From assembly GCF_026571515.1 (NCBI RefSeq), contig NW_026851538.1, forward strand, positions 22,164 through 86,163: a DNA stretch of 64,000 nucleotides, written 5' to 3'. This DNA comes from Ruditapes philippinarum (taxonomy: Eukaryota). Made by a program: the position numbers and the translations under genes. A model generated the notes under the pieces. The model saw only the letters and a list, made by a program, of their open reading frames with translations, did not search any database and was not told the origin of the DNA. The first letter of the stretch is position 1, and each line of letters starts with the position of its first letter. Below are positions 5,413 through 52,804 of the stretch, piece after piece.

Positions 5413-5593
5413 CTCTAGATTAAGAGCATCCATTTTGTCATTTTCTACCGGATTTCCTCCCTCGTCAACTTGTACCAATTTACCGTCTGATTTATTTTGA
5501 ACCAGTCGGTGGACGTAGTTATCACCTATATAATCCCACACTTTATTGTTACCTAGCTCCATAGCATACGTATGATGTGTCTCTTGAAAATGT
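5413..5593 (-). CDS. BRAP: BRAP ZnF-UBP exon ([60 protein letters not shown])
   Basis: Acceptor ttattttag, donor gtactt, 1+180 nt. Near-identical to human [41 protein letters not shown]...KIDALQLE. Confidence 0.9.
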
Positions 5594-6329
5594 CTAAAAT
5601 AACATAATATGCAAATTATACTTTAAAGGGACTCCACTGAGATTTTTTTGACACTGGAAATATTATTAAAAGATTTGTGTACCATTTGATGAAGGTTTGG
5701 CCCAAATACTTGTGTGCAAACTTTCAGATTATTCACTCAATGAATAATCATTTTTGTAATGCAAAATGGCCAAAAAGTTGAAAAGTTTTTAACTCAAATC
5801 TGGCTTGCACAAAAATTAATTTAAACTTTATATACAAAGATATTTCTTTATAATCTTTTGTATATTTTACTATTTTAAGTGCCCCATTTAATCTACGTTA
5901 ATTTAATGATTTAAGGCTTTTGACCTCAGTGGAGCTCCTTTAAGAATTTACAAAATAGAGTGTACCTTAAGGAGATAGAATTTAGAGGAGTAAACACTGG
6001 CCAACTTTTAACAGTGACAGACATTATCTTGTGTGATCAAAATATCCATTACTCCACCCTACATTTCATTGAGAAATGTACAACTTAATTTTTTAAAAAA
6101 TGGATGAAAACAAAACATTTTTGTGTGGCTCATAAATTATTTGGATTATAAATCACATGGACGATATTTATTCCTGGATCTTGCTGCTGTTGACCCAAAT
6201 CCTGCCATGAATACAGCATAAACTGCTACCTAAGGTCTTTAACTAGTGAACCTTGAAGGTTGCCATATGGCTTTTACAGTTCCCCTGTGACTAAAATCCC
6301 AAGCAAACAAAGATCTTTTTAAAAATTAC

Positions 6330-23900: not shown

Positions 23901-25545
23901 CTATAGAATTCTTTTTTACATTATCAGTATATAAACATTAGGATATAACGTATAATTAGATTCATTCATAAAGTTTTATAAACAGGTTGGTGAATTTCCA
24001 TTTTGTACTGGTAGTGATAATTATAGGCTTTGCTACAACAACAAATGTATATAATTATATAGATAGGCCCTACTGGCATGTTGATATATAGTTTGACCTG
24101 AAGCTGTGACCTGATTTCTGCTTAATTTTATGAATTTAACTCTGACATCCCTCTTGTTTACAATGAACTAGTCCAAATAAAAAGCAGGACAAGTTCATTA
24201 ACACAAATTTAGCAGGGTTGTAAGTTATAATATATAAGTGCTGGAATATTATTAATATATATAATATATTGATCACATAATGAAGAACATATGAAAAATT
24301 AGTGTAGAACACAACAGTGTTTTTCCCTGTATACATTCTTTGGCTACCAATGTACATCTGACATCACTGTTAAATCTACTGGAAACAAGTAAATAAAACT
24401 TAGCTGGCAGAAGCTTCATTTTTACATGATTTTTAGCTAGAAATCCAATATTTCTGTAACATTGGTCATTATTAAATATTAACTCCTTTCTGTAGTGTAG
24501 GTCAACAGAGATATTATACTTGATTTTTCTCCCAAGGATGAATAAGTTCTGACCAATGATGTTTTCATAATTGTGTGCTGATTCTTTTGTAGGCTAGAGA
24601 TTATATTTAAAATATTTTGCAATAATGCCAATTGTTATAAAAACCTAACTAATACCTGCTTATTTAAGTCTAACCTGCCTCTATATACTGCCTGCTGCTG
24701 CTTTATTGTAATGTCTGAAATTCCTGAAACAACTAATGCACTGTTCCAAATTCAAATCGGGACAAGTCCACTTCATAAATTCAGGTGAGGTCAGTTAAAA
24801 AACCTTAAGTTGCTGAATTTCTGTACTGGATTTGTCCAGTTTTGAATTTGGAACAGTACATTTGAAATTTGAGGGATTTCAATATTTTTCAAAAATTAAT
24901 AATTGAGCTACCAACAATATAGTGTCAGCCTGGTCAGGCTGCATGTATGTGTAGACTGGCCTGGTTTTGTACTGGGGGTTAAGGCTCTAAGGTAAGGTAA
25001 GGGGGTAAAAATTATCAGTTAAAATAAATAATAAGGTTGTCTTGCATTTTAAGTCAATGTAGTTTAAACAATTAATTTTTTTAAGAAAACCACCTCATAT
25101 AAAGAAGAATTTTCCAAATTGTTTTTATATAATCAGAATAATAGATCAAGGTCGTGTATAGGTAAAAAAACAGCCACATAGTTTTGATAAAGTTTTCTTG
25201 TATAGTAATTATCCTAAATAGACGATTTATACCTGGACCAAGTACACACATTTTTAAGTAATAACCAGTTAACCTGTGTTTATAGTGGTGTATTGAAGTG
25301 TAGCTTTAGTGTAGAGTAGATTAAGTGGGATAGTTGGAAATAATTATGTTGATCTAGCTTTACCTACATTTATATACCTATATAAAACAGAACAGTTGAT
25401 TAACCCAATAAAGCATTTTTCGGTCGGGTGTAACTGGTTGAAAAACTGGTCAGTACTGGTACAGAATCCAGGACCCTTGTTTCTTCAACTGTTAAAAAAA
25501 AAATGTTTGCTAGTTGTACTTTATTGACAAAGTGCCAAGCACAAA

Positions 25546-25782
25546 TGAGCCGCGTCACGACAAAACCAACATAGAGTGTTTGCGACCAGCATGGATCCAG
25601 ACCAGCCTGCGCATCCGCGCAGTCTGATCAGGATCCATGCTGTTTGCTTACCAACCCTATTACAAGTAGAGAAACTGATAGCAAACAGCATGGATCCTGA
25701 TCAGACTGCGTGGATGAGCAGTCTGGTCTGGATCTATGCTGGTCGCAAACACATTATGTTGGTTTTGTTGTGACGCAGCTCA
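25546..25782. mobile_element. palindromic MITE copy b (237 bp)
   Basis: Termini tgagccgcgtcacgacaaaaccaacat ... atgttggttttgttgtgacgcagctca. Internal inverted core cagcctgcgcatccgcgcagtctgatcaggatccatgctg. Confidence 0.85.
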
Positions 25783-26014
25783 AATAATTTTGTAATTGAT
25801 AATTAACACACAATATGGGTTAGTGAAACTACACATTCAGTTATTTATATTGTGAGTTTGCATGATTGTATTGTTTGAAAAAATATGAAAATTAAGAAAT
25901 TGGAATGAAGTAGGTAAGACTTGAGAAAACAATGAAATTTTTTTTTTAAATTAGTAACATGTTGAAAGAAAACTAGAAAATGTTTTAATTGTCTATTTTC
26001 AGAACTGAGTAAAC

Positions 26015-26148
26015 ATGGCAACTAGGAAAGACAACGAGTCTTTGTTCAGAATTCCACCATATTATTATATTCATGTACTTGACCAGAACAAAAATGTTAC
26101 GAGGTTGGAAGTTGGTCCACAGACGTACATCAGGCAGGACAATGAAAG
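26015..26148 (+). CDS. MVP: MVP coding exon 1 ([44 protein letters not shown] + R partial)
   Basis: ATG at 26015, donor gtgaat. Near-identical to human [45 protein letters not shown]. An acceptor-like tctattttcag lies 11 nt upstream of the ATG. Confidence 0.93.
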
Positions 26149-26157
26149 GTGAATATA

Positions 26158-26393
26158 TGAGCCGTGTCATGACAAAACCAACATAATGCGTTTGCGACCA
26201 GCATGGATCCAGACCAGCCTGCGCATCCGCGCAGTCTGATCAGGATCCATGCTGTTCGCTATCAGATTCTCTACTTGTAATAAGAGTTGGTAAGCGAACA
26301 GCATGGATCCTGATCAGACTGCGCAGATACGCAGGCTGGTCTGGTCACGCCAGTCGCAAACGCACTATGTTGGTTTTGTCATGATGCGGCTCA
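26158..26393. mobile_element. palindromic MITE copy c (236 bp), starting 9 bp after the MVP exon-1 donor
   Basis: Same termini and core as copy b. Flanked by tata / tata. Confidence 0.85.
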
Positions 26394-26457
26394 TATATAT
26401 ATAGATCTATATACTGATTTGTTTGTTGTGTTTTTAAACGTTTTTGGTTTTGAATTT

Positions 26458-28737
26458 TTAGCTCACCTGTCACAAAGTGACAGGGTGAGCTTTTGTGATC
26501 GCTTTTCGTCCGGCGTCCGTCCGGCGTCCGTCCGTCCGTAAACTTTTACTTTAAATGACATCTCCTCATAAACCACTAAGCCAATTTCATCCAAACTTCA
26601 CAGGAATGTTCCTTTGGTGGTCACCTTTAAAAATTGTTCAAAGATTTTAATTCTATGAAGAACTCTGGTTGCCATGGCAACCGAAAGAAAAAACTTTAAA
26701 TATCTTCTTTTAAAAAACCATAAGAGCTAGAGCTTAGATATTTGGCATGAAACATCTTCTAGTGAGTGTCTACCAAGTTTAACAAATAAAAGCCCTGGGG
26801 TCAAAATTGGCCCCGCCCCGGGGGATCATTGATTTTCCCTATATACATATAGTAAAAAATTAAAAAATCTTCTTTTAAAGAACCATAAGAGCTAGAGCTA
26901 AGATATTTAGCATGAAACATGTTCTAATAGGTGTCTACCAAGTTTGTTCAAATAAAAGCCCTGGGGTCAAAATTGGCCCCGCCCCGGGGGGTCATTGATT
27001 TTCCCTATATACATATACTAAAAACTTAAAAAATCTTCTTTTAAAGAACCATAAAAGCTGGAGCTAAGATATTTAGCATGAAACATTTTCTAATGGGTGT
27101 CTACCAAGTTTGTTCAAATAAAAGCCCTGGGGTCAAAATTGGCCCCGCCCCGGGGGGTCATTGATTTTCCCTATATACATATAGTAAAAACTTAAAAAAT
27201 CTTCTTTTAAAGAACCATAAGAGCTAGAGCTAAGATATTTAGCATGAAACATGTTCTAATGGGTGTCTACCAAGTTTGTTCAAATAAAAGCCCTGGGGTC
27301 AAAATTGGCCCCGCCCCGGGGGGTCATTGATTTTCCCTATATACATATAGTAAAAACTTAAAAAATCTTCTTTTAAAGAACCATAAAAGCTAGAGCTAAG
27401 ATATTTAGCATGAAACATTTTCTAATGGGTGTCTACCAAGTTTGTTCAAATAAAAGCCCTGGGGTCAAAATTGGCCCCGCCCCGGGGGGTCATTGATTTT
27501 CCCTATATGCATATAGTAAAAACTTAAAAGATCTTCTTTTAAAGAACTCAAAGAGCTATGGCTAAGATATTTAGCATCAAACATGTTCTAATAGGTGTCT
27601 ACCAAGTTTGTTCAAATAAAAGCCCTGGGGTCAAAATTGGCCCCGCCCCAGGGGGTCATTGATTTTCCCTATATGCATATAGTAAAAACTAAAAAAATCT
27701 TCTTTTAAAGAACCAAAAGAGTTAAAGCTAAGATATTTAGCATGAAACATGTTCTAATAAGTGTGTACCAAGTTTGTTTAAATAAAAGCCCTAGGGTCAA
27801 AATTGGCCCGACCCCCGGGGGGTCATTGATTTTCCCTATATGCATATAGTAAAAACTTAAAAAATCTTCTTTTAAAGAACCAAAAGAGCTAGAGCTAAGA
27901 TTTTGAGCATGAAACATGTTCTAATAGGTGTCTACCAAGTTTGTTCAAATAAAAGCCCTGGGGTCAAAATTGGCCCCGCCCCTTGGGGTCATTGATTTTC
28001 CCTATATGCATATAGTAAAAACTTAAAAAATCTTCTTTTAAAGAACCAAAAGAGTTAAAGCTAAGATATTTAGCATGACACATGTTCTAATAAGTATCTA
28101 CCAAGTTTGTTCAAATAAAAGCCCTTGGGTCAAAAATGGCCCCGCCCTGGAGGATCATTGATTTTCCCTATATGCATATAGTAAAAACTAAAAAAAATCT
28201 TCTTTTAAAGAACTCAAAGAGCTATGGCTAAGATATTTAGCATGAAACATGTTCTAATAAGTGTCTACTAAGTTTGTTCAAATAAAAGCCCTGGGGTCAA
28301 AATTGGCACCGCCCCGGGGGTCATTGATTTTCCTTATATGTGTATAGCAAAAACTTAAAAAATCTTCTTTGAAAAAACCCAAATAGCTAGAGTTAAGATA
28401 TTAAGCATGAAACATCTTCTAGTAAGTGTCTACAAAGTTTGTTCAAATAAAAGCCCTGGGGTCAAAACTGGCCCGGCCCCAGGGGTGTCATTGTTTTTAA
28501 CTATATGTGTAAAGTAAAAACGTTAAAAAATCTTCTTTCAAAAAGCCCAATGAGCTAGAGCTTAGATGTTTAGCATGAAACATCTTCTTATGGGTGTCTA
28601 CCGAGTTTGTGCAAATAAAAGCCCTTGATTTAAATTGGCCCTGAAACGTTGGGGGGGAGGGGGGGTGAGGGGGGGCCTATATACAGGTGAGCGACCTCAG
28701 GGCCATCATGGCCCTCTTGTTTTATTTTTTTGGGTTT
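26458..28737 (+). mobile_element. 2.3-kb satellite-carrying element (pearl/CvA/Helentron-like): 5' hairpin agctcacctgtcacaaagtgacagggtgagct, then (CGTC/CCGT)n, a unique segment of about 200 bp, about 12 units of about 165 bp, a G-rich tail, and a 3' palindrome gggccatcatggccc ending ...ctcttgttttatt
   Basis: aaagccctggggtcaaaattggccccgcccc recurs every 164-166 bp from 26800 to 28620. Near-identical to 44026-46389 in the same orientation. Lies in MVP intron 1. Confidence 0.85.
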
Positions 28738-28892
28738 TTTTTTTGTGTTTGTGTGTTTTTTTAAGTGGCAAAATTTTATAAGGTGTACAGTCCCCAGAGC
28801 AACATCTTTTGGATTTTTGTTGATGCTAAGAGTGGTTGCTGTAGAATGCACAAGAGCTTGACATATAATTTCTTTTGATAATTGAAAAAAAA

Positions 28893-28980
28893 TAGAAAAA
28901 AATTAAGAAATGCCGGCAAATATACCCCTCTATACAATATATTTATTGTATAGAGGGGTATATTTGCCGTTATTTCTTAA
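28893..28980. repeat. near-perfect palindrome of about 85 bp (arms aattaagaaatgccggcaaatatacccctctatacaatat)
   Basis: The reverse complement of the right arm equals the left arm, with 2 mismatches over about 40 bp. Confidence 0.8.
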
Positions 28981-29548
28981 TTATTTGCTTATATTTTTCA
29001 TTTATTGATAGAATGTCAAGCTCCTGAGGTAGGAAGGTAAGATTTATTGTCCAGCCTTACCTGTTGAAGAGTACTGTTGTTGTAGAGAGGTGGTTGTTCT
29101 ACAGAGGTTTGGTTGTCCAGTACAGGTTGCACTATATTTTATTATTGTCCATTTTTTTGATGACATAAAAGAAAGGATACTAAGTTGACTGTGGCTTGAT
29201 GATTTAATTGTCTGTCTGTTAACACAGAAATATTTGGCTCAGATTCTGCTGGGGTCATGCAAATGTTTTGTCATATGACATCAGTTGGGTTTGTTCTGGG
29301 AAAAAAAAAATGTTTTTTTTAGAGTGGTACAAATTAGCACAGAGCTTAATAATTATAAGTCTCTAAAATAACCCACCCGGTTATATTCTTCGCAATTAAG
29401 CATTAAAACCAACAAAAGGAAATATTCTGTAGTATAATTAATTATATTTATACAGGTTTTTTTCTAGTTGATGATGATAAAAAAAAATGAACAGTTTCCC
29501 ATTTAATTGAATATTTCTGTAAAATAACGAAGATTTGATCGATTTTAG

Positions 29549-29744
29549 GGTGGTTATTGGCCCAGAAAAGATGATCACAGTGCCACCCAGGCATTACTGT
29601 GTCATCGAGAATCCAGCCTTGAGAGATAAAGATAACAGTGTTCTCCTTGATAAGAGCGGTCAAGTCCGGCTTTTACACGCTGACCAAGAGATCAGACTTG
29701 CCCAGGATCCCTTCCCACTTTATCCTGGAGAGGTTCTTAAACAG
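29549..29744 (+). CDS. MVP: MVP exon 2 ((R)[65 protein letters not shown])
   Basis: Acceptor gattttag, donor gttggt, 1+195 nt. Human [65 protein letters not shown]. Confidence 0.93.
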
Positions 29745-29772
29745 GTTGGTCTGTTTATTCTTTCTTAAAAAT

Positions 29773-29970
29773 TGAGCTGTGTCAGGACAAAACCAACACA
29801 GTGCGTTTCGACCAGCATGGATCCATACCAGCCTGCGCATCTGCGCAGTCTGATCAGGATCCATGCTGTTCACTATCAGTTTCTCTACTTGTAATATAGT
29901 TGGTAAGCAAACGGCATGGATCCATGCTGGTCGCAAACGCACTATGTTAGTTTTGTCGTGACGTGGCTCA
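29773..29970. mobile_element. palindromic MITE copy d (198 bp), 29 bp after the MVP exon-2 donor
   Basis: tgagctgtgtcaggacaaaaccaacac ... tgttagttttgtcgtgacgtggctca. Confidence 0.8.
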
Positions 29971-30792
29971 AATAATATTAAGCTTTATTTGTTGTATTAT
30001 AAGTGATGTATTAAGAAAATATTGATGAAATAAAATGCTTATTTTCATTTTCCTATTTTCACTTTAAAAATTTATTTTTCACTGCAGTGAAATATATTTT
30101 CCATATTTTCACTGGTGTCTTGAAAATTATCATATATATTTTCATACCACTTGATGAAATAAATCCTTTATTTATAGAAAAAAGTTGAATCTTGATTAAA
30201 AAAAAATTTTATCAAAATTTAAAATGTATCTAAATGGAAGGAATGATGTTTGTAAACTTATAATAAAACTAAAATTAGGTATCATTTAACCAGGGCTCAA
30301 CTTGCAAAGCTGGTCATATTTAAGGAAGTTACCTTAAAATTTTTATTGTCAACAAGGATCATTTCAAGTGATATATTTTGTAATTGTATATTTTTATACT
30401 GTTTACTTCTTTAAGATTTTTATATACCTCAATCATGTATCTACTGATCATATTTAATTAAGGAAGTAACGTCAGAAATCCTATCTTCAACAAGTCTCAT
30501 TGCAAGTTGCTGTGTCACATACACTCTTCCCTATAGGGTGCATGATACACAGTCTGTGAAACGTAATAAGGCTAAAAAGGAAGCAATGTTAAGATTAAAC
30601 TACCTGCACAAAGATATAATTTATCTTGAATAACTTCCTTATTCTTTATAAAATTGATATTAGGTCAGTGGTCTTGTTAAAAACGATAAAAACATTCTAA
30701 ACATGTTCAGTGTACATGTAATTGTAAATTAACTTTTTTGTAACAATGTGTCATTTACATAATTATATAAAAAGTTTTCAATAATTTTTCAG

Positions 30793-30916
30793 GCTGTAAC
30801 TCCGCTGAAAGTTGTGGCCCCTAACTCGGCCTTAAGATTACGTGCAATATTAGACTTTGAAGATGATACAGGGGAAAAGAGGACCGCTGGTGACGAGTGG
30901 CTGTTTGAGGGACCAG
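30793..30916 (+). CDS. MVP: MVP exon 3 ([41 protein letters not shown] + G partial)
   Basis: Acceptor ttttcag, donor gtaaga, 124 nt. Human [41 protein letters not shown]. Confidence 0.93.
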
Positions 30917-31335
30917 GTAAGAATCCCAATCATCTTTGTTGGGTAGGACAGAAAGGTTAAATGAGTGCATCCCTTGGCTGGTTACTTTGGACAAGTTTGA
31001 CTGTATTCACTAAATACCTACACAGGTGACAATATCTTAACAATGATGTGTATCTCACGTTAATGTGCAAGTAATTATATGAAGGTGTATACCATTCACC
31101 AAATTGGTCATTTTTACTTTGAAACAAAAAGCCAGCAACAGTCAGAAATAAAGAAAGCCGAAATTATAAACCCCTTGTCATTGCAAAAATCGTACATTAG
31201 CATTATGTACTTATATGTACTTATTGTACAAGTCCAGAGAATGGGATTGATTGGGATATTTGTAATGAATTTTTGGTGGGGACTTATTTTTCGGAAACTA
31301 AACAAATTGTTTCTTAAATTACTGCTTTCATTTAG

Positions 31336-31688
31336 GTACCTATATACCAAGGAAAGAGGTCGTGGTAGAGGAAACGGTTCGAGCCACTATCATCAAGCCT
31401 AACCAGGCCATCCGGTTACGTGCACGTAAAGAATGCATTGATAGAGAGGGTAACGCACGTGTAACAGGTGAGGAATGGGAAGTGAAGAAGACAGGAGCTT
31501 ACCTGCCAGGAGCGTATGAAGAAGTTGTAGATATTGTTAATGCATATGTGCTAACGGAGAAGAAGGCGCTCCATATGAGGTCGTTGAGGACATTCAAGGA
31601 TGATTTCGGTGTTACACGTAAAAACGGTGAAGAATGGCTTATCACCATGGACATGACAGAAACACATATCCCGAATGTGTACGAAGAG
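31336..31688 (+). CDS. MVP: MVP exon 4 ([47 protein letters not shown]...HIPNVYEE)
   Basis: Acceptor tcatttag, donor gtcagt, 2+351 nt. It is part of listed ORF 31362-31751. Human [49 protein letters not shown]...HVPDVHEE. Confidence 0.93.
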
Positions 31689-32053
31689 GTCAGTTTCTTT
31701 TTGAAATACATACATTCTCAGGATGCATATTCTCATGATCTATTAATGTAGTATATAATAAAGTAATCTGACGAAAATTATAAACAATATCAATGAAGAA
31801 TAATGGTATCGGTAATGGTTGTGGTATAATGTATTCTTTTCTGTTTTGTTGATTGAATTTTTACTACTTTTCTTTGGAAGTTTGTTCCTAACTAAGTTAC
31901 TTAGTGCAACATATTATTTTTGAACATTGATTAAAAAAGAAAGACAGAAATACAAAAAGATGATTTTAAAAAAAAACAACAACACCAAAAACTCAAACCT
32001 TATTTAAATTTAGATTCTTTAATTTATTTTGTCATACAAATTTATACCTGTAG

Positions 32054-32164
32054 GTTGTTGGAGTTGTCAACATCACATCTCTCAGTAACAGACACTACTG
32101 TGTCATCTTAGACCCTGTAGATGAGAAGGGCAGACCACAGATGGGAAGGAAAAAGCTGGTCAAG
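32054..32164 (+). CDS. MVP: MVP exon 5 ([37 protein letters not shown])
   Basis: Acceptor tacctgtag, donor gtatgt, 37 codons. Human [37 protein letters not shown]. Confidence 0.92.
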
Positions 32165-32439
32165 GTATGTATAGTCTGAAAAGATATTTAATTAAATACA
32201 GTGTATCCTTAAGAAACAGAATGAAGTCTAACTGATTGCTAAGCTCAATATGGAGAGTATTTGAAAAGTAATCTAGGAGACGCTGGTTGGTTCCTCGGGC
32301 AAGGCGTAATTTCTCCATGACCAATTGGTCTTGGACATTGATTCTAATGTTCATTTATTTCTCACTGCTGATTTAGTAATGATATTAGTAGTTGGTCACT
32401 TGTGGGGAAATTAATTTATTGGTTAGTTTTCAAGGAAAG

Positions 32440-33840
32440 CTTGTTATGCCCCCACAATGTGGGAGCATATAGCGTTGCACTTGTCCATCCTTCCGTCTGT
32501 CAGTCCGTACGTCCCGAAATCTTGTGAACGCAACTCCTCTTAAACCGGATGGCAGATTTTGCTTAAACTTACAGGGATGAACAACCTTAATGTGTAGATG
32601 GTAGTAAAGGAAGGAATTTTCGCTGCGACCAAATTTAACAGAATTATGGCCCTTTGTTGATTTTTTCACTTTATACTATGTAGAAATTTTGTGAACGCAA
32701 CTCCTCTTAAACCGGATGGCAGATTTTGCTTAAACTTCCAGGTATGAACAAACTTAATGTATAGATGGTAGTAAAGGAAGGAATTTTTGCTGCGACCAAA
32801 TTTAACAGAATTATGGCCCTTTGTTGATTTTTTCACTATATACTATGTAGAAATTTTGTGAACGCAACTCCTCTTAAACCGGCTGGCATATTTTGCTTAA
32901 ACTTACAGGGATGAACAACCTTAATGTGTAGATGGTAGCAAAGGAAGGAATTTTTGCTGCGACCAAATTTAACAGAATTATGGCCCTTTGTTGATTTTTT
33001 CACTATATACTATGTAGAAATTTTGTGAACGCAACTCCTCTTAAACCGGATGGCAGATTTTGCTTAAACTTCCAGGGATGAACAACCTTAATATGTAGAT
33101 GGCAGTAAAGGAAGGAATTTTCGCTGCGACCAAATTTAACAGAATTATGGCCCTTTGTTGATTTTTTCACTATATACTATGTAGAAATTTTGTGAATGCA
33201 ACTCCTCTTAAACCGGATGGCAGATTTTGCTTAAACTTCCAGGGATGAACAACCTTAATGTGTAGATGGTACCAAAGGAAGGAATTTTTGCTGCGACTAA
33301 ATTTAACAGAATTATGGCCCTTTGTTGATTTTTTCACTATATACTATGTAGAAATTTTGTGAACGCAACTCCTCTTAAACCGGAGGGCAGATTTTGCGTA
33401 AACTTCCAGGGATGAACAACCTTAATATGTAGATGGCAGTTAAGGAAGGAATTTTCGCTGCGACCAAATTTAACAGAATTATGGCCCTTTGTTGATTTTT
33501 TCACTATATACTATGTAGAAATTTTGTGAATGCAACTCTTCTTAAACCGGATGGCAGATTTTGCTTAAACTTCCAGGGATGAACAACCTTAATGTGTAGA
33601 TGGCAGTAAAGGAAGGAATTTTTGCTGCAACCAAATTTAACAGAATTATGGCCCTTTGTTGATTTTTTCACTATATACTATGTAGAAATTTTGTGAACGC
33701 AACTCCTCTTAAACCGGATGGCAGATTTTGCTTAAACTTCCAGGGATTAACAACCTTAATGTGTAGATGGTAGTAAAGGAAGGAATTTTTGCTGGGACCA
33801 AATTTAACAGAATTATGGTCCTTTGTTGATTTTTAGTTTT
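32440..33840 (+). mobile_element. satellite-carrying element in MVP intron 5: head ttatgcccccacaatgtgggagcatatag, (GTCC/CCGT)n-like stretch, then about 8 tandem units of about 160 bp (gaaattttgtgaacgcaactcctcttaaaccggatggcagattttgcttaaactt...)
   Basis: Units start near 32515, 32682, 32841, 33001, 33161, 33321, 33491 and 33651. The head is homologous to the one at 6340. Confidence 0.7.
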
Positions 33841-34504
33841 CAACTTGTGGCACATGTAGTCCAAAAATATTTGACCTAGAGTCATAAGATTGACAGAACA
33901 GTGGCGTGTGGGGGCATCAGTGTCCTATGGACACATTTCTAGTTTAAGTGGGTCTTCTAAAGAGTTATTAAAGAAAACATGTGTTGCAAAAATGATTTAT
34001 AAACAAAATCAAAATAAGTCATATGCCAGAAATTTAGACATTCATGATGCATGGTTTGAAAATTTTGATGAAATTATTATTTGTTTTACTTCATTGCATT
34101 TCTCACCACAATTTAATCCTTAAATGGAATCAGAATAGCTTTTTTTTCACCACTTCAGAGCTTGGTAAGACTTGGCCCTATACTGTAGGCTGAGCAACTT
34201 GAGAACTGTCATTAAGATATCCAAAATTGATAATAACTTTCCTATGAATCAAAACAGGATAGTTTATTTAAAAAAAATATGGTATGTGTTGATTCAAATA
34301 CTTAAAATGTTGAGGACTAAATACTGCTAAAACATGTGCTAGGGAGGTGAAAGATGTAGCATCTTCCCTTATATGTCATGGCTAAATACAACCAAGTGAG
34401 CAATTTTTGACAATCCTTTTTTTGTTTTCATTGATATGCCCTTTATTAGAATGTTCAGGAATAAATTTTAAAATGTGACCATGAATATATTTTTTGATTT
34501 ACAG

Positions 34505-34624
34505 GGAGAAAAGACATTTTTCTTGATGCCCGGTGAGCGACTTGAGAGAGGAATTCAAAATGTATATATCCTAGGTGAAGACGAGGGTCTCATCCTGAGA
34601 GCTAACGAGAGTTTCAAAGATGGC
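34505..34624 (+). CDS. MVP: MVP exon 6 ([40 protein letters not shown])
   Basis: Acceptor gatttacag, donor gtaagt, 40 codons. Human [40 protein letters not shown]. Confidence 0.92.
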
Positions 34625-35178
34625 GTAAGTAATTTGAATTATTTCAGAAATATTCTATATATATAAATTACGTGCTTAATGCCAATAAGTAATGCAGTAA
34701 TGAAAGCAGCGAAAAGCAGCTCCTGAAAAATGGAGGATTTTGAGTTTAATTTTTAAACATTTAAACTTTCTAAGCTGAATGGGCTTCTAATTGTATGTTT
34801 TCACTAGATAGACAACTTTCAAAGTTAGTAGAAATATAAAAACTATATTTTTGAATATTGAATGTGAGGAACGTATCCAGCTACCTTATTGAACTGGGTG
34901 GTTCTACTTGGGTGCCAGCTTGTGTCTGAAATAATGCAGAGAGGGAGAGCCAAAGTTTTCCTCCAATAGTCAAGCTGGAAAGTCTTAGGCATGACTTTCA
35001 CACTGTTGATGTGACTTAAAATCCAACAAAAATAAATGCATGAACAAGTACATCCAACAATTTTACTATGAGATAATGATACGTGTTCATTTAGATTTCC
35101 ATGATTTTTATTACACAGACTATATTGTGATCATTTTACATGTAGAATGTTAAAATAACTTTCCTAAACATTATAAAG

Positions 35179-35328
35179 GAGGTGGATCGTAAGCCAGGAG
35201 ATAGATGGATGATCAGAGGCCCTAAAGAATATGTTCCCCCCGTAGAGGTAGAGGTGGTGATGAAACGACAGGCCATTCCCCTTGATGAGAACGAGGGTAT
35301 ATATGTCAGAGATGTTAAAACTGGCAAG
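35179..35328 (+). CDS. MVP: MVP exon 7 ([50 protein letters not shown])
   Basis: Acceptor ttataaag, donor gtatac, 50 codons. Human [45 protein letters not shown]. Confidence 0.92.
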
Positions 35329-36050
35329 GTATACTTGATTATTTTACATTAATGCTGCATGCCTCCAGATGAGTCGAAATATTTCACGAAAATCAGAGTT
35401 GAGAAAAAATGTACTGAAATTTTATGAAAAGTAAAATGATTGAAAATTTTGGTAATAGTTTCCATGTTATGGGCTGTAATGACTGAATTTGTAGTAGTTT
35501 TCACCATAATTCTACTGTGTGACAAATACAGTTAGGGCTATATTAGCATATTTTGACCTCATTTTAGTAATAAACACAGATTGTAAGTTCTGTTTGTAAT
35601 GTGGAAATAACTTTCTTTGTTCACTTCACAATATAGTGCTTTTCAAAACATTTTTCAAAATTTTCATGAAAATTAACATGAATCTGGAGGCATGCTGCTT
35701 TAAGTTTGAGAATTTTCAGTAATTTTCTACAGAAACATATATATATAGTTGATCTATGCTTAAAGTTAACCGTCAAGATTTCAATACTTCTGACACACAT
35801 TTACACCCATTAATCAGCAATACTTGATGCTTTATCTAGGTGTAGCCAATAAATTTTATTGCTCTTGTTACATCAAATCATATCTTTTATAGTACATATA
35901 TGAGGGATTTCTTTTTAATGATAAACTGGAAATCTTTTTCGGCTGTACTACTGGAACTGTTTTCAATCCTGTAGATGAAAAAAGATTATTTTTAGAAAAG
36001 TTTATGATATACACATAAGGATGTTAGTAAATGTTTATTATTACATTTAG

Positions 36051-36286
36051 GTAAGAGCAGTTACAGGGGAGACCTACATGCTAAATCATGATGAGGAACT
36101 CTGGTCAAAGGAACTTCCTCCCGCAGTCGAGAACCTGCTAATGGCAGCTAAAGACCCGCTAGCTGACCGCAATACGAAAGGTGCACCAGAAGCCGGAAAG
36201 GCTCGTGACAAGACACGGGTTATCACATTTAGAGTGCCACACAATGCCGCTGTACAGATTTATGATTATAAGGAGAAAAAAGCTAG
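36051..36286 (+). CDS. MVP: MVP exon 8 ([40 protein letters not shown]...[18 protein letters not shown] + R partial)
   Basis: Acceptor ttacatttag, donor gtaaga, 236 nt ending in phase 2. Human [40 protein letters not shown]...[19 protein letters not shown]. Confidence 0.92.
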
Positions 36287-36429
36287 GTAAGAATGGTAAA
36301 TATGGCGGGAAAATTGGTTGAAAGAAAGTCGTCTGCTGCAATATTGTTATATTCTTTTTAATTTTCTGTTTACATGACATATAATATTGTGGTATCATAT
36401 AATATAGTGGTATGATAGTGTTTGTTGCG

Positions 36430-36670
36430 AAACCTCCGGTGTCCATAGCCAAGTGATTATGGTTGTTGACTTCTGACCACTTTCCCATCACTTCTGTGGG
36501 CTCGAGACTTCCTTGAGATTTTTTTTCTTTCATGTGAGGAAGCCAGTCAGCTAGCTAACATTACATTTGTGGTTCTATTTGGGTGCCCCTTCATGTTTGT
36601 GCGAAGGGACACCTGAGGTCTTCGATCTTCCTCGTCATATGACCTCTACTAGGATGGTGCAATGTAAAAA
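36430..36670 (+). mobile_element. tRNA-derived SINE (family with core gtgcc(c)ctgaaat...cacctgaggt) in MVP intron 8
   Basis: Homologous to 46415-46660 and 57890-58130. Partial copies at 34860-34990 and 39310-39460. Confidence 0.6.
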
Positions 36671-36860
36671 AACAACCAAAACAACAAAAGAAACCTGTTA
36701 TGTAATAATGTAGACACTAAAATTTATGTACTTGTATGTATGAAAACTTGTATTTTTGCACAATTGATATGTGCATTTGTACAATAAAGAATATTATGTC
36801 ATGTATTTATCATGTCAAGTTCATTTTTCTGTAAAACAAAAAATTTTGCCACTTTTTCAG

Positions 36861-37058
36861 AGTTATTTTTGGACCAGAATTAGTTATGCTTGGCCCAGAT
36901 GAACAATTCACACAGCTCAGTATTTCTGGTGGTAAACCAAAGAAACCAAACATGATCAAATCACTTTGTCTTCTTCTCGGACCAGATTTCTGCACAGATA
37001 TCATTGTAGTCGAGACATCTGACCACGCAAGGCTCTCACTTCAACTGTCATACAATTG
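36861..37058 (+). CDS. MVP: MVP exon 9 ([65 protein letters not shown] + W partial)
   Basis: Acceptor actttttcag, donor gtaagt, 198 nt. Human [66 protein letters not shown]. Confidence 0.93.
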
Positions 37059-37254
37059 GTAAGTAGACTGAACAGCACATTTAGAATGTGATGCTAAGAA
37101 AAAATTATAAATATATATATGTCATGAATTTTTTTTTTTGGAATTTGAAATTCAATTAAAATTAAATTTTATTCCCAAGTTTAATGATAAAGATTCCATA
37201 AGTTTCAGAACGGTTAGAGTTTAAGGAATGATAAATTTAGTTTATACGAATTTA

Positions 37255-37455
37255 TTTTAGTTTGATTGTGTTGGAAGCTATAAACTTATTGAAACACTCT
37301 CGAATCTGTTCCTGGAATTAACCAGTACTTGGCAACGAGTGTAAAATTTCTTGCTCAAGGAAACAACGGCTTTCCGCTAACTGGGTTTGAATATTTGCGG
37401 CCAGCAGTCCTTAGATTACTAGTCTGACGTGTTGACCACTCGGCCACGCCGCCAC
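37255..37455 (-). mobile_element. tRNA-derived SINE (minus orientation; head ggccgagtggtcaacacgtcagactagtaatctaagg) in MVP intron 9
   Basis: Homologous to 53545-53710 (minus orientation). Shares its tail with the fragment at 4000-4135. Confidence 0.65.
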
Positions 37456-37685
37456 ACATATTGTAATAGATACAACGTACATGTTTTGTTTGTTTTAATA
37501 ACATCATAGTTTGCTTTACGTTTTATGTGACTTGATAAAGGTTTTCAGGACGACAGCTAGATAGATAGATTCTCTTGTACATCTGTTTTCCTAAAATATT
37601 TATAATGAACATATCTACTATAATCCCTTTTAACACTGTTGATAATCTTGCTTGGTAGTGCTTCTAACATTCTAGCATTTTGCAG

Positions 37686-37830
37686 GCATTTTGAAGTTAA
37701 AAGCAAAGACGACACCGTTGAGTCTGCCAAACTATTCAGTGTTCCTGATTTTGTAGGCGATTCTTGTAAAGCTATCGCATCTCGTGTGAGAGGTGCTGTT
37801 GCCCAAGTCGCCTTTGATGATTTTCATAAG
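37686..37830 (+). CDS. MVP: MVP exon 10a ((W)[48 protein letters not shown])
   Basis: Acceptor ttttgcag, donor gtatgt, 1+144 nt. Human [48 protein letters not shown]. Confidence 0.9.
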
Positions 37831-37880
37831 GTATGTTCAAAATGATTGTTGTAAGTATTTAAAACATTTTGACTTTTCAG

Positions 37881-38025
37881 GCACTTTGGCATAGAGAATA
37901 AGAAAGATGGCGTGGATGCTGCTAAATTGTTCAGCGTGCCAGATTTCGTTGGTGATGCTTGCAAAGCTATCGCCTCTCGTGTCAGAGGGGCCGTAGCTCA
38001 AGTGGCTTTCGATGATTTCCACAAG
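37881..38025 (+). CDS. MVP: MVP exon 10b, a tandem duplicate of 10a ((W)[48 protein letters not shown]). Predicted mutually exclusive with 10a.
   Basis: Acceptor gacttttcag, donor gtatcg, 145 nt, same phase as 10a, 50 nt downstream of it. Using both would add 145 nt and shift the frame. The two copies differ mainly at synonymous sites. Confidence 0.8.
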
Positions 38026-38963
38026 GTATCGCTTTTAGAAAAAAGAATGTGTGTGGTTTTGCAAATTCCCTTAAACCATTGATTTGATACAAAAAAATTA
38101 ATATAAAGAGAAAATTTCTTAATACATGTACACCTGCCTGCTGTGCTATGTTATGAAATTTCGATCCAATTCCTCTAAGTTGTCAAAAATCTACTCACCA
38201 GTGCTGAACCCAAGAGTAAATTAATAATTCTATTCAAATCCTTCAGAATCCATTTAATTTTATAGTAAACACGAAAAATGTATCTTATAAACCTTAAACT
38301 TTTAACACTTTTTAACTTTATTACCAAAACTTGTTTAACATCAAACGTATTTCCAATGGTTTTTGGAATGAAAAAAAATGTTTGTTTTAATACCCCCCCC
38401 CCCCACCCAGCCTTCGGAAAATGTTAGTTAGGGGCATTTTATAGAAATAATACGTTGCTATATGTTGCTCATTTGAGTAGGGATTATACCTTTTAGCAAT
38501 GATGATGTGCATGGGCCATTTGTTCCTAGGGAAACATAATATTTTTTTTCTTACACATTAAGGAAGTTTTTTTTTTCAAAATTCAAAAAGTAATTTTCAT
38601 AGCTATGGGTAGCTGATATATAGCTTTACACACTTAAAAAGATACAGAACAAATGTAGTTAAAAAACATTATTATAAAAAATTATGTACATACTCTGTAC
38701 AAGTTCAAAGTTTCAACATCTCATTTGTAAATTTTAAATGGTTGGTATTATAGTTAAAGTGTCTGCCTCTGAAATCAGAGGTTGTTGGTTAAATCCCTAC
38801 TTTGATGACCACCATGTTTCCTAATATTGTTTATTGGAGCCGGGATAAAGATTGGTTAAAATGAGCTCTTTTCCAATTTAATCGTATTCGAGCTGAAATA
38901 TGTATATTTAACTAGCACCATGGGTAGACTTTTTACTGATGACATGTTTTTTGCTTGTTACAG

Positions 38964-39175
38964 AATTCAGCTAGAGTTATCCGATCGTCTGTGTTTGGTT
39001 TTGATGAGAAGGACAAAGTTCGAGATGTGTTTGTTTTCAAGCAGAATAATCTATACATCACAAGTATTGATATCCAGTCCGTGGAACCTGTCGATCAGCG
39101 TACACGTGACTCGCTACAGAAATCTGTCCAACTGGCCATTGAAATCACCACCAACTCCCAGGAAGCTGCAGCCAG
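38964..39175 (+). CDS. MVP: MVP exon 11 ([70 protein letters not shown] + R partial)
   Basis: Acceptor cttgttacag, donor gtaatg, 212 nt. Human NSARIIRTAVFGF...[37 protein letters not shown]. Confidence 0.93.
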
Positions 39176-39580
39176 GTAATGTCATGTCTTGTTATTTTAC
39201 AGGCTCGAAATCTTTAACTCTAATGTGCTGAAGTATTATTTAGAAGTAACATTTCTACAGTTTTGTTATAAAAAATTATCATATTTTTGTCATTTTAGAT
39301 GTATTTTAAAGCTATCCTTGTAGTTTTGGTGGTTTTACTCCGGTGCCCATTTGTTCCTGAAATATCGACAGAGGGGCTCTTGAGGTCTGCCTCGGTTAGC
39401 TGGAAAATCAACATATGACCTATACTGTATTGGTGCAACGTAAAACCTAACAAAACCAAAAACATCAAATAAAAGTTCACTTTTAAGTGTATACATTTTG
39501 TACATGTACATTGAAGTTTTCTGTTGAAAAAACAGTTTAGCAGATATTTGAAGAATGACAATTTCTTTTTATTTTCACAG

Positions 39581-39800
39581 ACATGAAGCTGAACGATTAG
39601 AACAAGAGGCCAAGGGTCGTCTTGAACGTCAGAAAATCAGCGATGAGGCAGAAGCAGAAAAGGCCCGCAAGGACCTGCTGGAGCTACAGGCTAACAGCGC
39701 AGCTGTAGAGTCCACTGGTCAAGCTAAGGCCGAGGCACAGTCCAGGGCCGAGGCTTCAAGAATTGAGGGCGAGGCTGCTGTTGAACAAGCCAAATTGAAG
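39581..39800 (+). CDS. MVP: MVP exon 12 ((R)[73 protein letters not shown])
   Basis: Acceptor attttcacag, donor gtatgt, 1+219 nt. Human [73 protein letters not shown]. Confidence 0.93.
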
Positions 39801-41855
39801 GTATGTTACTAAATGTGTTACTTACATAAGGTAACGGATATTTATCACAAAAACCTAGGTGAAGGAGTGTAATAAGGTCATAAAATAAAAACGATATTTC
39901 AGTGTAATAATACTTCAATGTGATGTCATTTGCAATATATTTAAATAAGACGTTAAAGCGCATCGAATAAAAAAGTACTCTATTTATAAGTAAACCATTT
40001 TTAGTTTGGATATTTGATAAATAGTATATTATATTTGTGTAGATTCAATGCTAGATTTGTTGAACTCATTATATAAAACAATGTTATGCTTGTCTGAGGC
40101 TTGCATAATATGATTTTATTCAACATGTACAAAGATTTAGTGTCAGTTACTCTGATAGTCCTTACTTTACCTTAACGTCCTTACTTAACCTTAACCCACT
40201 GAATTTATGTATTTTGGTTTGTCAAGCATTTATTTGGAACACCCCATTAAAATTAAAGGGATGTCATTTAAAGCACAAAAAAATGAGCAACCAATACTTT
40301 AGAGCCTGACAAATGGTGCATAAATTTATTGACTGGCCTGGCCTTATTCTTGTGGCAAAGGTTGATTACCTTTGGTTCCAGGCTAAGGGAACCGTAAACA
40401 TTATTTTCACTTACAGCTTTAAAATATGATATTTTTCATGCAATTAAAGGGAGACCACTGAGTTTTTTTCACATGAGCTGAACTAGAAAACGTTTTTAGC
40501 TCGACTATTCGAAGAAAATGAGAGCTATTGTAGTCGCCCCGGCGTCGGCGTCAGCGTCCGCGTCGGCGTCTGCGTTGGTTAAAGTTTTTTGTAAAGTCAA
40601 ATATCTTAAATATTGCTTGAGATATTCAATTGAAACTTACAATACTTATTTATAGTAACAAGGTACATCAGATTGACAAGTTGGATAACTCTATCTACAA
40701 TATTGCCAGAATTATGCCCCTTTTTAACTTAGAAATTTTGGTTAAAGTTTTTTATAAAGACAAATATCTCAATTATTGTTTGAGATATTCAATTGAAACT
40801 TACAATACTTATTTATAGTAACAAGGTACATCAGATTGACAAGTTGGATAACTCTGCGTACAATATTGACAGAAATATGCCCCTTTGAAACTTAGAAATT
40901 TTGGTTAAAGTTTTTTTGTAAAGTCAAATATCTCAACTATTGCTTGAGATATTCATTTGAAATTTACAATACTTTTTTATAGTAACAATGTACATCATTT
41001 TGCTAAATTGCATATCTCTGTCTGCAATATTTGCAGAATTATTTGCCCCTTTGAAACTTAGAGATTTTGGTTAAAGGTTAAAGATCTTCAAAGATATTTA
41101 CTTGAAACTTTACACATGTACTTTGGGTTATAATATGAGGGTCATAATTGTATGTCACTGACCAAGTTCCATAACTCTATCTTGCATTAAGGCTGATTCA
41201 TATCCCCTTTTCTACTTAGTCTCTTGGATAATGTTTACATGCAAGCTTTACATATCTCAATAACTATTAAAGATATTTATTTAAAACTTCACATATGCAT
41301 TTAGGGTCAGAATTGTAGGTCACTGACAAAGATCCATAATTCTATCTTGCATTTAGGCTGATTTTTCTTCCTTTTTTCAACTTTAAAAATTCATGGTAAA
41401 GTTTTGCTTGTAAGCTGTTATCTCCATAACTACTGAAGGGTTTGTGCCTTTTTTGGGACAATTTTATGCATTCGTAATAATAAAGCAGTGATTTACTTGA
41501 TAAAACAGCTTAATAACAAGCCTTTGTACCTTTTCTGTCAATTTTATGTATTCATAGGTAATTAGTATTATTATACTCAATAAAGCACCCTTGTGACATT
41601 ACCTTCCAAATAGTCAAGCCAATACTGTATAATTAGACTCTCTCTAAGACCTATAACATGAATTTATAAAAAAAAATTAGCCCTTTTGTGAACTTAAAAA
41701 ATTTAACATTATCAAGGCTCTTTTACTATCAAGCAATTAGAATAGTCGAGCGTGCTGTCCTACCGACAGCTCTTGTTTCTTAAGCAAATCTGGACTGCTA
41801 TAAATTATATGGTTAATGTTTTACATAATTAATGCTCATGGTTTTCATTATATAG

Positions 41856-42236
41856 GCACAAGCCATGAAGATTGAGGCGGAGTCTGAACTTGAGAGGTTG
41901 ACCAGTGCCAGAGAGGCGGAGCTTAAGTTTGTAAAGGAACAGAATGAAATGGAATTGGCCAAATCCAGAGAGACTGCCGAGATCGAGACAGTTAAGTTCA
42001 AGCAAATGGTGGACGCTATTGGTTCGAGCACCCTTCAGGCCATTGCCACGGCTGGTCCGGATCTTCAGGTCCGCATGCTCCAGGCTCTTGGTATGAAATC
42101 AACTGTGATCACCGACGGCACCACACCGGTCAATTTGTTTAACACGGCCCAAGGACTAATTGGGGGAATTGGAGGTGGACATATGGTCCCTTCAAAACGT
42201 GCACGAAGAAATGACGATGATGAGGATGATGATTAG
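41856..42236 (+). CDS. MVP: MVP terminal exon ([15 protein letters not shown]...[80 protein letters not shown])
   Basis: Acceptor ttatatag, TAG stop at 42234-42236. Part of listed ORF 41865-42236. Human AQALAIETEAELQRV...[57 protein letters not shown]. Total CDS is 2580 nt, 859 aa. Confidence 0.93.
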
Positions 42237-44025: not shown

Positions 44026-46389
44026 GCTCACCTGTCACAAAGTGACAGGGTGAGCTTTTGTGATCGCTTTTCGTCCGGCGTCCGTCCGTCCGTCGTCCGT
44101 CCGTAAACTTTTGCTTTAAATGACATCTCCTCATAAACCACTGAGCCAATTTCATCCAAACTTCACAGGAATGTTCCTTTGGTGGTCACCTTTAAAAATT
44201 GTTCAAAGAATTTAATTCCATGCAGAACTCTGGTTGCCATGGCAACCAAAAGAAAAATCTTTAAATATCTTCTTTTAAACAACCCTAAGAGCTAGAGCTT
44301 AGATATTTGGCATGAAACATCTTCTAGTGAGTGTCTACCAAGTTTGTTCAAATAAAAGCCCTGGGGTCAAAAATGGCCCCGCCCCAGGGGGTCATTGATT
44401 TTCCCTATATGCATATAGTAAAAACTTAAAAAATCTTCTTTTAAAGAACCCAAAGAGCTAGAGCTAAGATATTTGGCATGAAACATCTTCTAGTGAGTGT
44501 CTACCAAGTTTGTTCAAATAAAAGCCCTGGGGTCAAAATTGGCCCCGTCCGGGGGGTCATTGATTTTCCCTATATGCATATAGTAAAAACTTAAAAATCT
44601 TCTTTTAAAGAACCGTAAGAGCTAGAGCTTAGATATTAAGCATGAAACATCTTCTAGTGAATGTCTACCAAGTTTGTTCAAATAAAAGCCCTGGGGTCAA
44701 AATTGGCCCCGCCCCAGGGGGTCATTGATTTTCCCTATATGCATATAGTAAAAACTTAAAAAATCTTCTTTTAAAGAACCCAAAGAGCTAGAGCTAAGAT
44801 ATTAAGCATGAAACATCTTCTAGTGAGTGTCTACCAAGTTTGTTCAAATTAAAGCCCTGTGGTCAAAATTGGCCCCACCCCGGGGGGTCATTGATTTTCC
44901 CTATATGCATATACTAAAATCTTAAAAAATCTTCTTTTAAAGAACCATAAGAGCTAGAGCTTAGATATTTGGCATGAAACATCTTCTAGTGAATGTCTAC
45001 CAAGTTTGTTCAAATAAAAGCCCTGGGGTCAAAATTGACCCCGCCCCAGGGGGTCATAGATTTTCCCTATATGCATATAGTAAAAACTTAAAAAATCTTC
45101 TTTTAAAGAACCCAAAGAGCTAGAGCTAAGATATTTAGCATGAAACATCTTCTAATGAGTGTCTACCAAGTTTGTTCAAATAAAAGCCCTGGGGTCAAAA
45201 TTGGCCCCGCCCAAGGGGGTCATTGATTTTCCCTATATGCATATAGTAAAAACTTAAAAAATCTTCTTTTAACGAACTCAAAGAGCTAGAGCTAAGATAT
45301 TTAGCATGAAACATGTTCTAATGGGTGTCTACCAAGTATGTTCAAATAAAAGCCCTGGGGTCAAAATTGACCCCGCCCCGGGGGTCATTGATTTTCCTTA
45401 TATGTGTATAGCAAAAAACTTAAACTCTTCTTTGAAAAAGCCCAAATAGCTAGAGTTTAGATATTAAGCATGAAACATCTTCTAGTAAGTGTCTACAAAG
45501 TTTGTTCAAATAAAAGCCATGGGGTCAAAACTGGCCCCGCCCCAGGGGTGTCATTGTTTTTAACTATATGTGTATAGCAAAAACTTAAAAAAATCTTCTT
45601 TTAAAAAGCCCAATGAGCTAGAGCTTAGATGTTTAGCATGAAACATCTTCTTATGGGTGTCTACCAAGTTTGTTCAAATAAAAGCCCTGGGGTCAAAATT
45701 AGCCCCACACCAGGGGGTCATTGATTGTCCCTATATGCATATAGTAAAAACTTAAAAAATCTTCTTTTAAAGAACTCAAAGAGCTAGAGCTAAGATATCT
45801 AGCATCAATCATGTTCTAATAGGTGTCTACCAACTTTGTTCAAATAAAAGCCCTGGGGTCAAAATTGGCCCTGCCCAGGGGGTCATTGATTTTCGTTATA
45901 TGTGTATAGCAAAAACTTAAAATCTTCTTTGAAAAAACCCAAATAGCTAGAGTTTAGATATTAAGCATGAAACATCTTCTAGTGAGTGTCTACAAAGTTT
46001 GTTCAAATACAAGCCCTGGGGTCAAAATTGGCCCCGTCCCGTCGTTCATTGATTTTCCTTATATGTGTATAGCAAAAACTTAAAATTTTCTTTGAAAAAA
46101 CTCAAATAGCTAGTGTTTAGATCTTTAAGCATGAAACATCTTCTAGTAAGTGTCTACAAAGTTTGTTCAAATAAAAGCCCTGGGGTCAAAACTGGCCCCG
46201 CCCCAGGGGTGTCATTGTTTTTAACTTTATGTGTATAGTAAAAACTTAAAAAAAATTTCTTTTAAAAAGCCCAATGAGCTAGAGCTAAGATGTTTAGCAT
46301 GAAACATCTTCTTATGGTGGTGGGGGGGGGGGGGTGCTATATACAGGTGAGCGACCTCAGGGCCATCATGGCCCTCTTGTTTTATTATA
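44026..46389 (+). mobile_element. second copy of the 2.3-kb hairpin-(CCGT)n-satellite element (about 13 units of about 165 bp), downstream of MVP
   Basis: Head tttagctcacctgtcacaaagtgacagggtgagcttttgtgatcgcttttcgtccggcgtccgtcc. Tail ggtggggggggggggtgctatatacaggtgagcgacctcagggccatcatggccctcttgttttatt. Both match 26458-28737. Confidence 0.85.
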
Positions 46390-46414
46390 CAGTAGGAAAA
46401 AATCGGGGCCTCCT

Positions 46415-52582: not shown

Positions 52583-52622
52583 GTAATGTATATTAATAGT
52601 TAATATCAATAGATAAGTAAAA

Positions 52623-52768
52623 TGAGCCGCGTCACGACAAAACCAACATAATGGGTCTGCGACCAGCACGGATCCAGACCAGCCTGCGCATCCCCTCTGA
52701 TGCGCAGGCTGGTCTGGACCCATGCTGGTCGCAAACGCACTATGTTGGTTTTGTCGTGACGCGGCTCA
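52623..52768. mobile_element. palindromic MITE copy e (146-bp near-perfect palindrome), 41 bp after the glucanase exon-1 donor
   Basis: tgagccgcgtcacgacaaaaccaacataatgggtctgcgaccagcacggatccagaccagcctgcgcatcccctctgatgcgcaggctggtctgga...gcggctca. Confidence 0.85.
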
Positions 52769-52804
52769 AATTTATAGTATCATAGAAACGAGTTAGTTAC
52801 GAGC

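Follow-up and report, generated by a model that had tools for sequence, protein, structure and literature searches.

Vaults still lack an agreed function, and their major vault protein (MVP) is usually taken as a single invariant building block. What, then, is to be made of a clam MVP gene in which one exon stands twice, in tandem and in closely similar form? Are the two copies alternatives to each other, are both of them used, and which part of the protein would they change? We examined these questions in a stretch of 64,000 nucleotides from Ruditapes philippinarum, called the window below and serving as reference for all coordinates in this gene. An earlier annotation of the window, made without database searches (the sequence-only reading), had predicted there a pair of mutually exclusive exons.

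A tandem pair of 145-nt exons in the MVP gene

A gene model assembled from open stretches and splice signals gave an MVP coding region that extends over 26015..42236 on the plus strand, comprises 13 coding exons and specifies a protein of 859 aa with either version of the tenth, exon 10a or exon 10b. On sequence evidence this gene is indeed that of MVP, as had been proposed before any database was consulted. Its product contains the Pfam domains Vault, Vault_2, Vault_3, Vault_4 and MVP_shoulder (the latter at residues 515-633), all far over their cut-offs. The peptide of the duplicated exon matches rat and human MVP chains in the PDB over residues 546-593 (E = 3e-20). A search with the full-length protein returned bivalve MVPs as best matches, with 100% identity to RefSeq entries named 'major vault protein-like'.

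Exon 10a occupies positions 37686-37830 and exon 10b positions 37881-38025, both on the plus strand and both 145 nt long, separated by an intron of 50 nt (37831-37880, plus strand). The acceptor of 10a reads ttttgcag and its 3' end AAG precedes the donor gtatgt; the corresponding signals of 10b are acttttcag, AAG and gtatcg. Re-reading the sequence confirmed the lengths and positions of the two exons, their AG and GT sites and the 50-nt gap, all as first described. Upstream, coding exon 9 (36861-37058, plus strand) ends with TG at a strong donor (TTG/gtaagt), and this TG forms a Trp codon together with the first G of either 10a or 10b. Downstream, coding exon 11 (38964-39175, plus strand) starts in phase 0 with AAT (Asn) after a long pyrimidine tract.

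The two copies are equal in length, share the same phase and are 74% identical at the nucleotide level and 81% at the amino-acid level. Their peptides have 39 of 48 residues in common, and eight of the nine differences fall within residues 3-13. A repeat finder reports the pair as a direct repeat of 156 nt with 74% identity and a spacing of 195 nt. This similarity is far above chance, since one copy retrieves the other by tblastn with E = 9e-24. Either exon encodes MVP residues 543-590; placed on rat MVP, as the sequence-only reading had suggested doing, the segment falls at residues 546-593, within the shoulder domain.

Both versions of the protein are present in RefSeq. The 10a model is identical over 859/859 residues to XP_060583978.1, isoform X2 of R. 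philippinarum, and the 10b model, again over 859/859 residues, to XP_060583917.1, isoform X1 of the same species. The two entries differ from each other at only nine residues, all within 544-567, as expected from the prediction of two isoforms that differ in a short segment. The further remark that no such exon pair was known for MVP stands as far as publications are concerned: a full-text literature search returned no paper in which mutually exclusive exons or tandem exon duplication are connected with MVP, and the survey of such exons in human (PMC5740500) does not mention the gene in its main text. It does not stand for databases, RefSeq already listing both isoforms. The clam pair is thus already in automated annotation and undescribed in the literature.

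The numbering of the exons calls for a similar distinction. An acceptor-like ttttcag (window 25995-26014) lies 12 nt upstream of the MVP ATG, so that 'exon 10' has to be understood as the tenth coding exon. The number given by the sequence-only reading is correct in this sense; in the transcript the same exon is probably exon 11, with a non-coding first exon located further upstream.

Consequences for the reading frame

The most direct argument for exclusivity comes from the length of the exons. When 10a and 10b are both included, the frame is shifted and a stop codon is reached 7 codons into 10b; when both are skipped, a stop follows directly after exon 9. At the level of the product the two exons are therefore exclusive, because 145 nt shift the frame whenever both are joined or both are left out, and the claim that a productive transcript can contain only one of them is borne out. 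Nonsense-mediated decay removes transcripts with such early stops, and clam transcripts carrying both exons or neither would be cleared in this way.

In this respect the clam pair is close to homologous clusters catalogued in human (PMC5740500) and Caenorhabditis elegans (PMC4165533), being likewise composed of similar exons of the same phase and of equal length, this length not being divisible by 3. Frame incompatibility plus nonsense-mediated decay is the safeguard in many of the human clusters (PMC5740500) and in 14 of 19 such non-3n clusters of C. elegans (PMC4165533). The clam pair resembles these clusters in that double inclusion or double skipping leads to a premature stop, the role of decay being a prediction in the clam. 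Altogether, we consider it very likely that 10a and 10b form a mutually exclusive pair that arose by tandem exon duplication in venerid MVP, and a steric block between their splice sites, discussed below, is probable in addition.

Conservation of both copies in Mercenaria

If both exons matter, they should be found together in related clams. This is the case in Mercenaria mercenaria, which belongs to the Veneridae as does Ruditapes. Its MVP gene contains 10a, an intron of 47 nt and 10b in the same order, with all splice sites intact, and the 10b ortholog encodes HFGVESKTDGEDA.... RefSeq again provides two isoforms, X1 and X2, of 859 aa each, that differ in this exon only. The sequence-only reading had pointed to the loss of splice sites from one copy in related genomes as a sign against alternative use; in Mercenaria the same pair is found and neither copy lacks them.

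One would also wonder whether the duplication could be an assembly artefact or a polymorphism of the sequenced individual. Beyond the general risk that tandem repeats carry, nothing points in this direction. On the other hand, 40 of the 144 coding positions distinguish the two copies, the open frames of both exons also occur on separate genomic contigs from JGI (P0346, P0383), and the independently assembled Mercenaria genome displays the same arrangement. This locus effectively refutes such an explanation, whose probability we regard as negligible.

Substitutions were counted by the method of Nei and Gojobori. Between 10a and 10b of Ruditapes, synonymous sites are saturated (pS 0.90, with 28.5 of 31.5 synonymous sites different), for a pN of 0.10. 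The comparison of orthologous copies between Ruditapes and Mercenaria gives pS 0.67 and pN 0.044 for 10a, and pS 0.68 and pN 0.058 for 10b, that is, a dN/dS of ~0.03 in each case. These counts indicate strong purifying selection on each copy since the clams diverged, and the earlier proposal to that effect is supported for 10a and 10b alike. At the protein level, orthologous copies share 44/48 (10a) and 43/48 (10b) residues, as compared with 39/48 for paralogous copies within a species. Orthologous copies being more alike than copies of the same genome, each variant keeps its own loop sequence, which reads HFEVK(S/N)KDD..ES in 10a and HFG(I/V)E(N/S)K.DG.DA in 10b.

Are both exons used?

Both products of single inclusion are present as computed RefSeq models in two species, Ruditapes and Mercenaria. 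We also looked for direct traces of splicing. Exact-pattern scans of a metagenome collection gave no match to the junctions of exon 9 with 10a or 10b, nor to those of 10a or 10b with exon 11. When the protein collection was queried with 10b joined to its neighbouring exons, the genomic frames P0346 and P0383, both unspliced, were the only matches, and a spliced form of 10b was absent. In relatives, every full-length transcript assembly contains a 10a-like exon.

These observations could suggest that one copy, most likely 10b, is silent or decaying and never productively spliced, in which case the second RefSeq isoform would be a modelling artefact. The donor of 10b, weaker than that of 10a, goes in the same direction. 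However, the frame, the AG acceptor and the GT donor of 10b are intact in both clams, and its dN/dS in this comparison is ~0.03, with synonymous sites close to saturation. A neutral stretch of 145 nt would not remain identical at 43 of 48 protein residues, and 10b has been modelled in two independent RefSeq annotations. We thus hold a silent second copy to be highly improbable. The use of both exons in transcripts is predicted from the RefSeq models of the two species and from the signature of selection.

Age of the duplication

No second copy was found in the MVP genes of Mactra antiquata (Mactridae, same order), Mya arenaria and Dreissena polymorpha, and the neighbouring introns of these three species contain no relic copy, even at E = 50 with a word size of 2. 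With a single copy in Mactra and the other two species and the pair in both venerids, the duplication took place after the split of Veneroidea and Mactroidea and before that of Ruditapes and Mercenaria, within or near the Veneridae. An old event of this kind agrees with the synonymous saturation between the copies, in line with the antiquity that the sequence-only reading had attributed to them.

Compared with the single exon of Mactra, pN amounts to 0.053 for 10a and 0.087 for 10b, and 10a is closest to the single exons of Mactra and Mya. Being nearer to the exon of the outgroups, 10a appears as the ancestral-like copy and 10b as the derived one.

The structure of the gene immediately downstream also varies among bivalves. 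Mya (locus L003, 14917/14918) and Dreissena (locus L004, 18049/18050) have no intron between exons 10 and 11, which are fused there; Ruditapes, Mercenaria and Mactra all have it, as do Lineus and Tubulanus, pointing to a loss (or a gain) within Imparidentia.

Splicing signals and a possible steric block

Premature stops explain why a productive mRNA contains one exon only. Could the spliceosome itself also be prevented from joining them? The intron between 10a and 10b is very short, the shortest other intron of the clam MVP gene measuring 365 nt. It is ~77% identical to its 47-nt counterpart in Mercenaria; the flanking introns diverge within ~20 nt. Upstream of 10a, a block shared with Mercenaria contains a candidate branch point, ctaAc (37664..37668, plus strand), whose A precedes the exon by 19 nt. 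By homology with this ctaac, we placed the putative branch point of 10b at TAAAAC, with the A at position 37864. It is included in the block TAAAACATTTTGAC (37860-37873, plus strand), which is invariant between the two clams. The A would be 17 nt before 10b and 33 nt from the 10a donor, the latter distance being 30 nt in Mercenaria.

Such a spacing of 33 nt is expected to be too tight for simultaneous binding of U1 and U2 to the two sites. Steric interference has been assumed for donor-to-branch-point distances below 50 nt in the human survey (PMC5740500), and a threshold of ~40 nt of total intron length applies to C. elegans (PMC4165533), although the former may not be the limit, nor the latter the minimum, in bivalves.

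A parallel can be drawn with exons 2 and 3 of alpha-tropomyosin, a classic mutually exclusive pair in which the branch point is too near the upstream donor. The clam pair is similar to that of mammals in its very short donor-to-branch-point distance, ~30-33 nt; it differs in that the gene and the protein are unrelated and that its branch point is deduced from sequence. Splicing-level steric exclusion is a probable property of the clam pair. An intron of 47-50 nt might, on the other hand, be excisable in bivalves, and the safeguard provided by the frame and by decay would then apply alone.

If the steric block holds, the choice of the exon would come down to a competition of the two acceptors for the donor of exon 9. 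In both species the 10b donor lacks the G at position +5 (gtatcg in Ruditapes, gtatag in Mercenaria), which is present in the 10a donor (gtatgt). This weaker donor, together with the 10a-like exon of the relatives' transcript assemblies, suggests that 10a could be the default exon.

Another hypothesis is that exclusion is governed by competing RNA structures, with docking and selector sequences of the kind described for insect Dscam and 14-3-3 zeta, and not by steric hindrance. Sequence similarity between the two clams does extend past the core splice signals, both in the short intron and immediately before 10a. Moreover, the nemertean Lineus longissimus, presented below, has a homologous pair with an intervening intron of 396 nt, for which another mechanism than a steric block would be needed. 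However, the inverted repeats that we found in introns 9 and 10 and in the short intron (37059-38963) are only AT-rich and imperfect, with 70-92% complementarity, and none of them connects a common site with both exons. We therefore judge control by RNA structures to be improbable for the clam pair and favor steric exclusion, with the reservation that, given the 396 nt of Lineus, it would not be a general requirement for this pair of exons.

The exons differ in a surface loop of the shoulder domain

The SPFH-like shoulder of MVP forms the hinge from barrel to cap. To see where the two isoforms would diverge, we used an AlphaFold model of the segment encoded by exons 9-11, which has a mean pLDDT of 79 and values >85 across exon 10. 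In this model, the eight clustered differences are located in a loop and a short helix (query residues 69-79) that follow a strand (57-68). They correspond to residues 548-558 of the rat protein, in the SPFH-like shoulder domain. The ninth difference, Ser/Ala, is predicted in the first turn of a long helix (88-104). Across 43 aligned MVPs, this loop is the one stretch of the exon with poor conservation. The rest is unchanged between 10a and 10b, including the His that matches His592 of human MVP, a residue that makes a lateral contact in the human vault (PMC13347060).

The clam isoforms are thus predicted to differ in a surface loop of the shoulder, and may also differ in function. A candidate role for this loop could come from the comparison with Dictyostelium, in which vaults touch membranes in situ via the shoulder region (PMC13100048); by analogy, the loop may contribute to shoulder-mediated contacts with membranes. 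In addition, vault shells have been reported to be assembled on a single polyribosome (PMC13100048, citing Mrazek 2014). In that case a single mRNA would supply all the subunits of a particle, which would then contain one isoform only.

The same exon is also duplicated in a nemertean

Among the other species with RefSeq MVP isoforms that we checked, L. longissimus is the only further one with an equal-length pair differing in this exon. Its isoforms X1 and X2, of 858 aa each, are distinguished by this exon alone, and within it mainly by the same loop. The corresponding locus (OU342993.1, L005) contains two homologous 145-nt exon copies at 5476-5620 and 6017-6161, in the same phase and 396 nt apart. 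The Lineus pair therefore resembles the clam pair in the exon concerned, its length and phase, its tandem arrangement and the loop that is altered. It differs in its independent origin and in its longer intron, to which steric exclusion is inapplicable.

The independent origin follows from two observations. The exon is present in one copy in another nemertean, Tubulanus (locus L007), as it is in Mactra, Mya and Dreissena, and neither Lineus copy resembles the clam 10b more than other MVPs do. On these sequence comparisons the same MVP exon has been duplicated at least twice independently.

What could be the benefit of such duplications? The clam pair by itself adds one modest entry to the known mutually exclusive exons, with a conventional mechanism in non-model organisms. 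It nevertheless marks, as a conserved isoform pair, a spot of the shoulder where variation is tolerated and apparently useful, and this hint gains strength from the fact that a second phylum has duplicated the exon on its own. We regard this recurrence as the most interesting by-product of our analysis. One could go further and propose that the loop is a specificity determinant of the vault, which venerids and a nemertean would each swap through an alternative pair obtained by duplicating the same exon. This proposal is tentative and in our opinion rather unlikely to hold in full. Were it true, these animals would make two distinct kinds of vaults, each particle being isoform-pure.

Other MVP variants

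The isoforms of Mytilus, Babylonia, Physella, Acanthaster, Dysidea, Oscarella, Orbicella, Branchiostoma and Nematostella show no difference in this exon. In these nine genera the variation lies elsewhere, mostly at the N-terminus or in the form of insertions around residues 350 and 450. The position near residue 350, which corresponds to the junction of exons 6 and 7 in the clam (window ~34624/35179), is a recurrent splice-variable spot across phyla, with insertions of 1-26 residues in isoforms of Mytilus, Babylonia, Branchiostoma and Oscarella (P0253-P0259, P0430, P0205, P0438).

In Littorina saxatilis, the isoforms X5 and X4 (P0158/P0431) are of equal length and show one difference, S551N, which falls inside the same variable loop. 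The locus (L006, 2174-2317) contains one copy of the exon, and X4 and X5 may represent tandem gene copies or alleles.

Dreissena (P0125/P0250) and Mytilus (clusters of P0131 and P0140) each possess two distinct MVP genes on the same chromosome. Like the clam exon pair, this is a route to more than one MVP variant per cell. It differs in scale: these are whole-gene duplicates with differences over the full length (28 blocks in Dreissena), whereas the clam isoforms are distinguished by nine residues in one exon.

Repeated sequences in and around the gene

A tblastn match at 38741-38815, in intron 10 (E = 0.009), was considered as a third, decayed copy of the exon and rejected as a chance match, its nucleotide score being only ~4 SD over shuffled sequences. 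This segment looks tRNA-derived and occurs once in the window.

Three introns of the MVP gene carry tandem arrays with units of 163-167 bp and 89-95% matches: intron 1 (26689-28625, 11.7 copies), intron 5 (32516-33834, 7.9 copies) and intron 12 (40575-41076, 3.1 copies). Open-frame fragments related to these arrays recur downstream of MVP, at ~44400-46400. Finally, a short interspersed element is present in many copies on both strands, for instance at 25403-25627(-), 25988-26239(-), 26187-26381(+), 29676-29984(-) and 52609-52779(-). It gives rise to the spurious translation '...HDKTNIVRLRPAW.QTSLRI...' and is probably a bivalve SINE.
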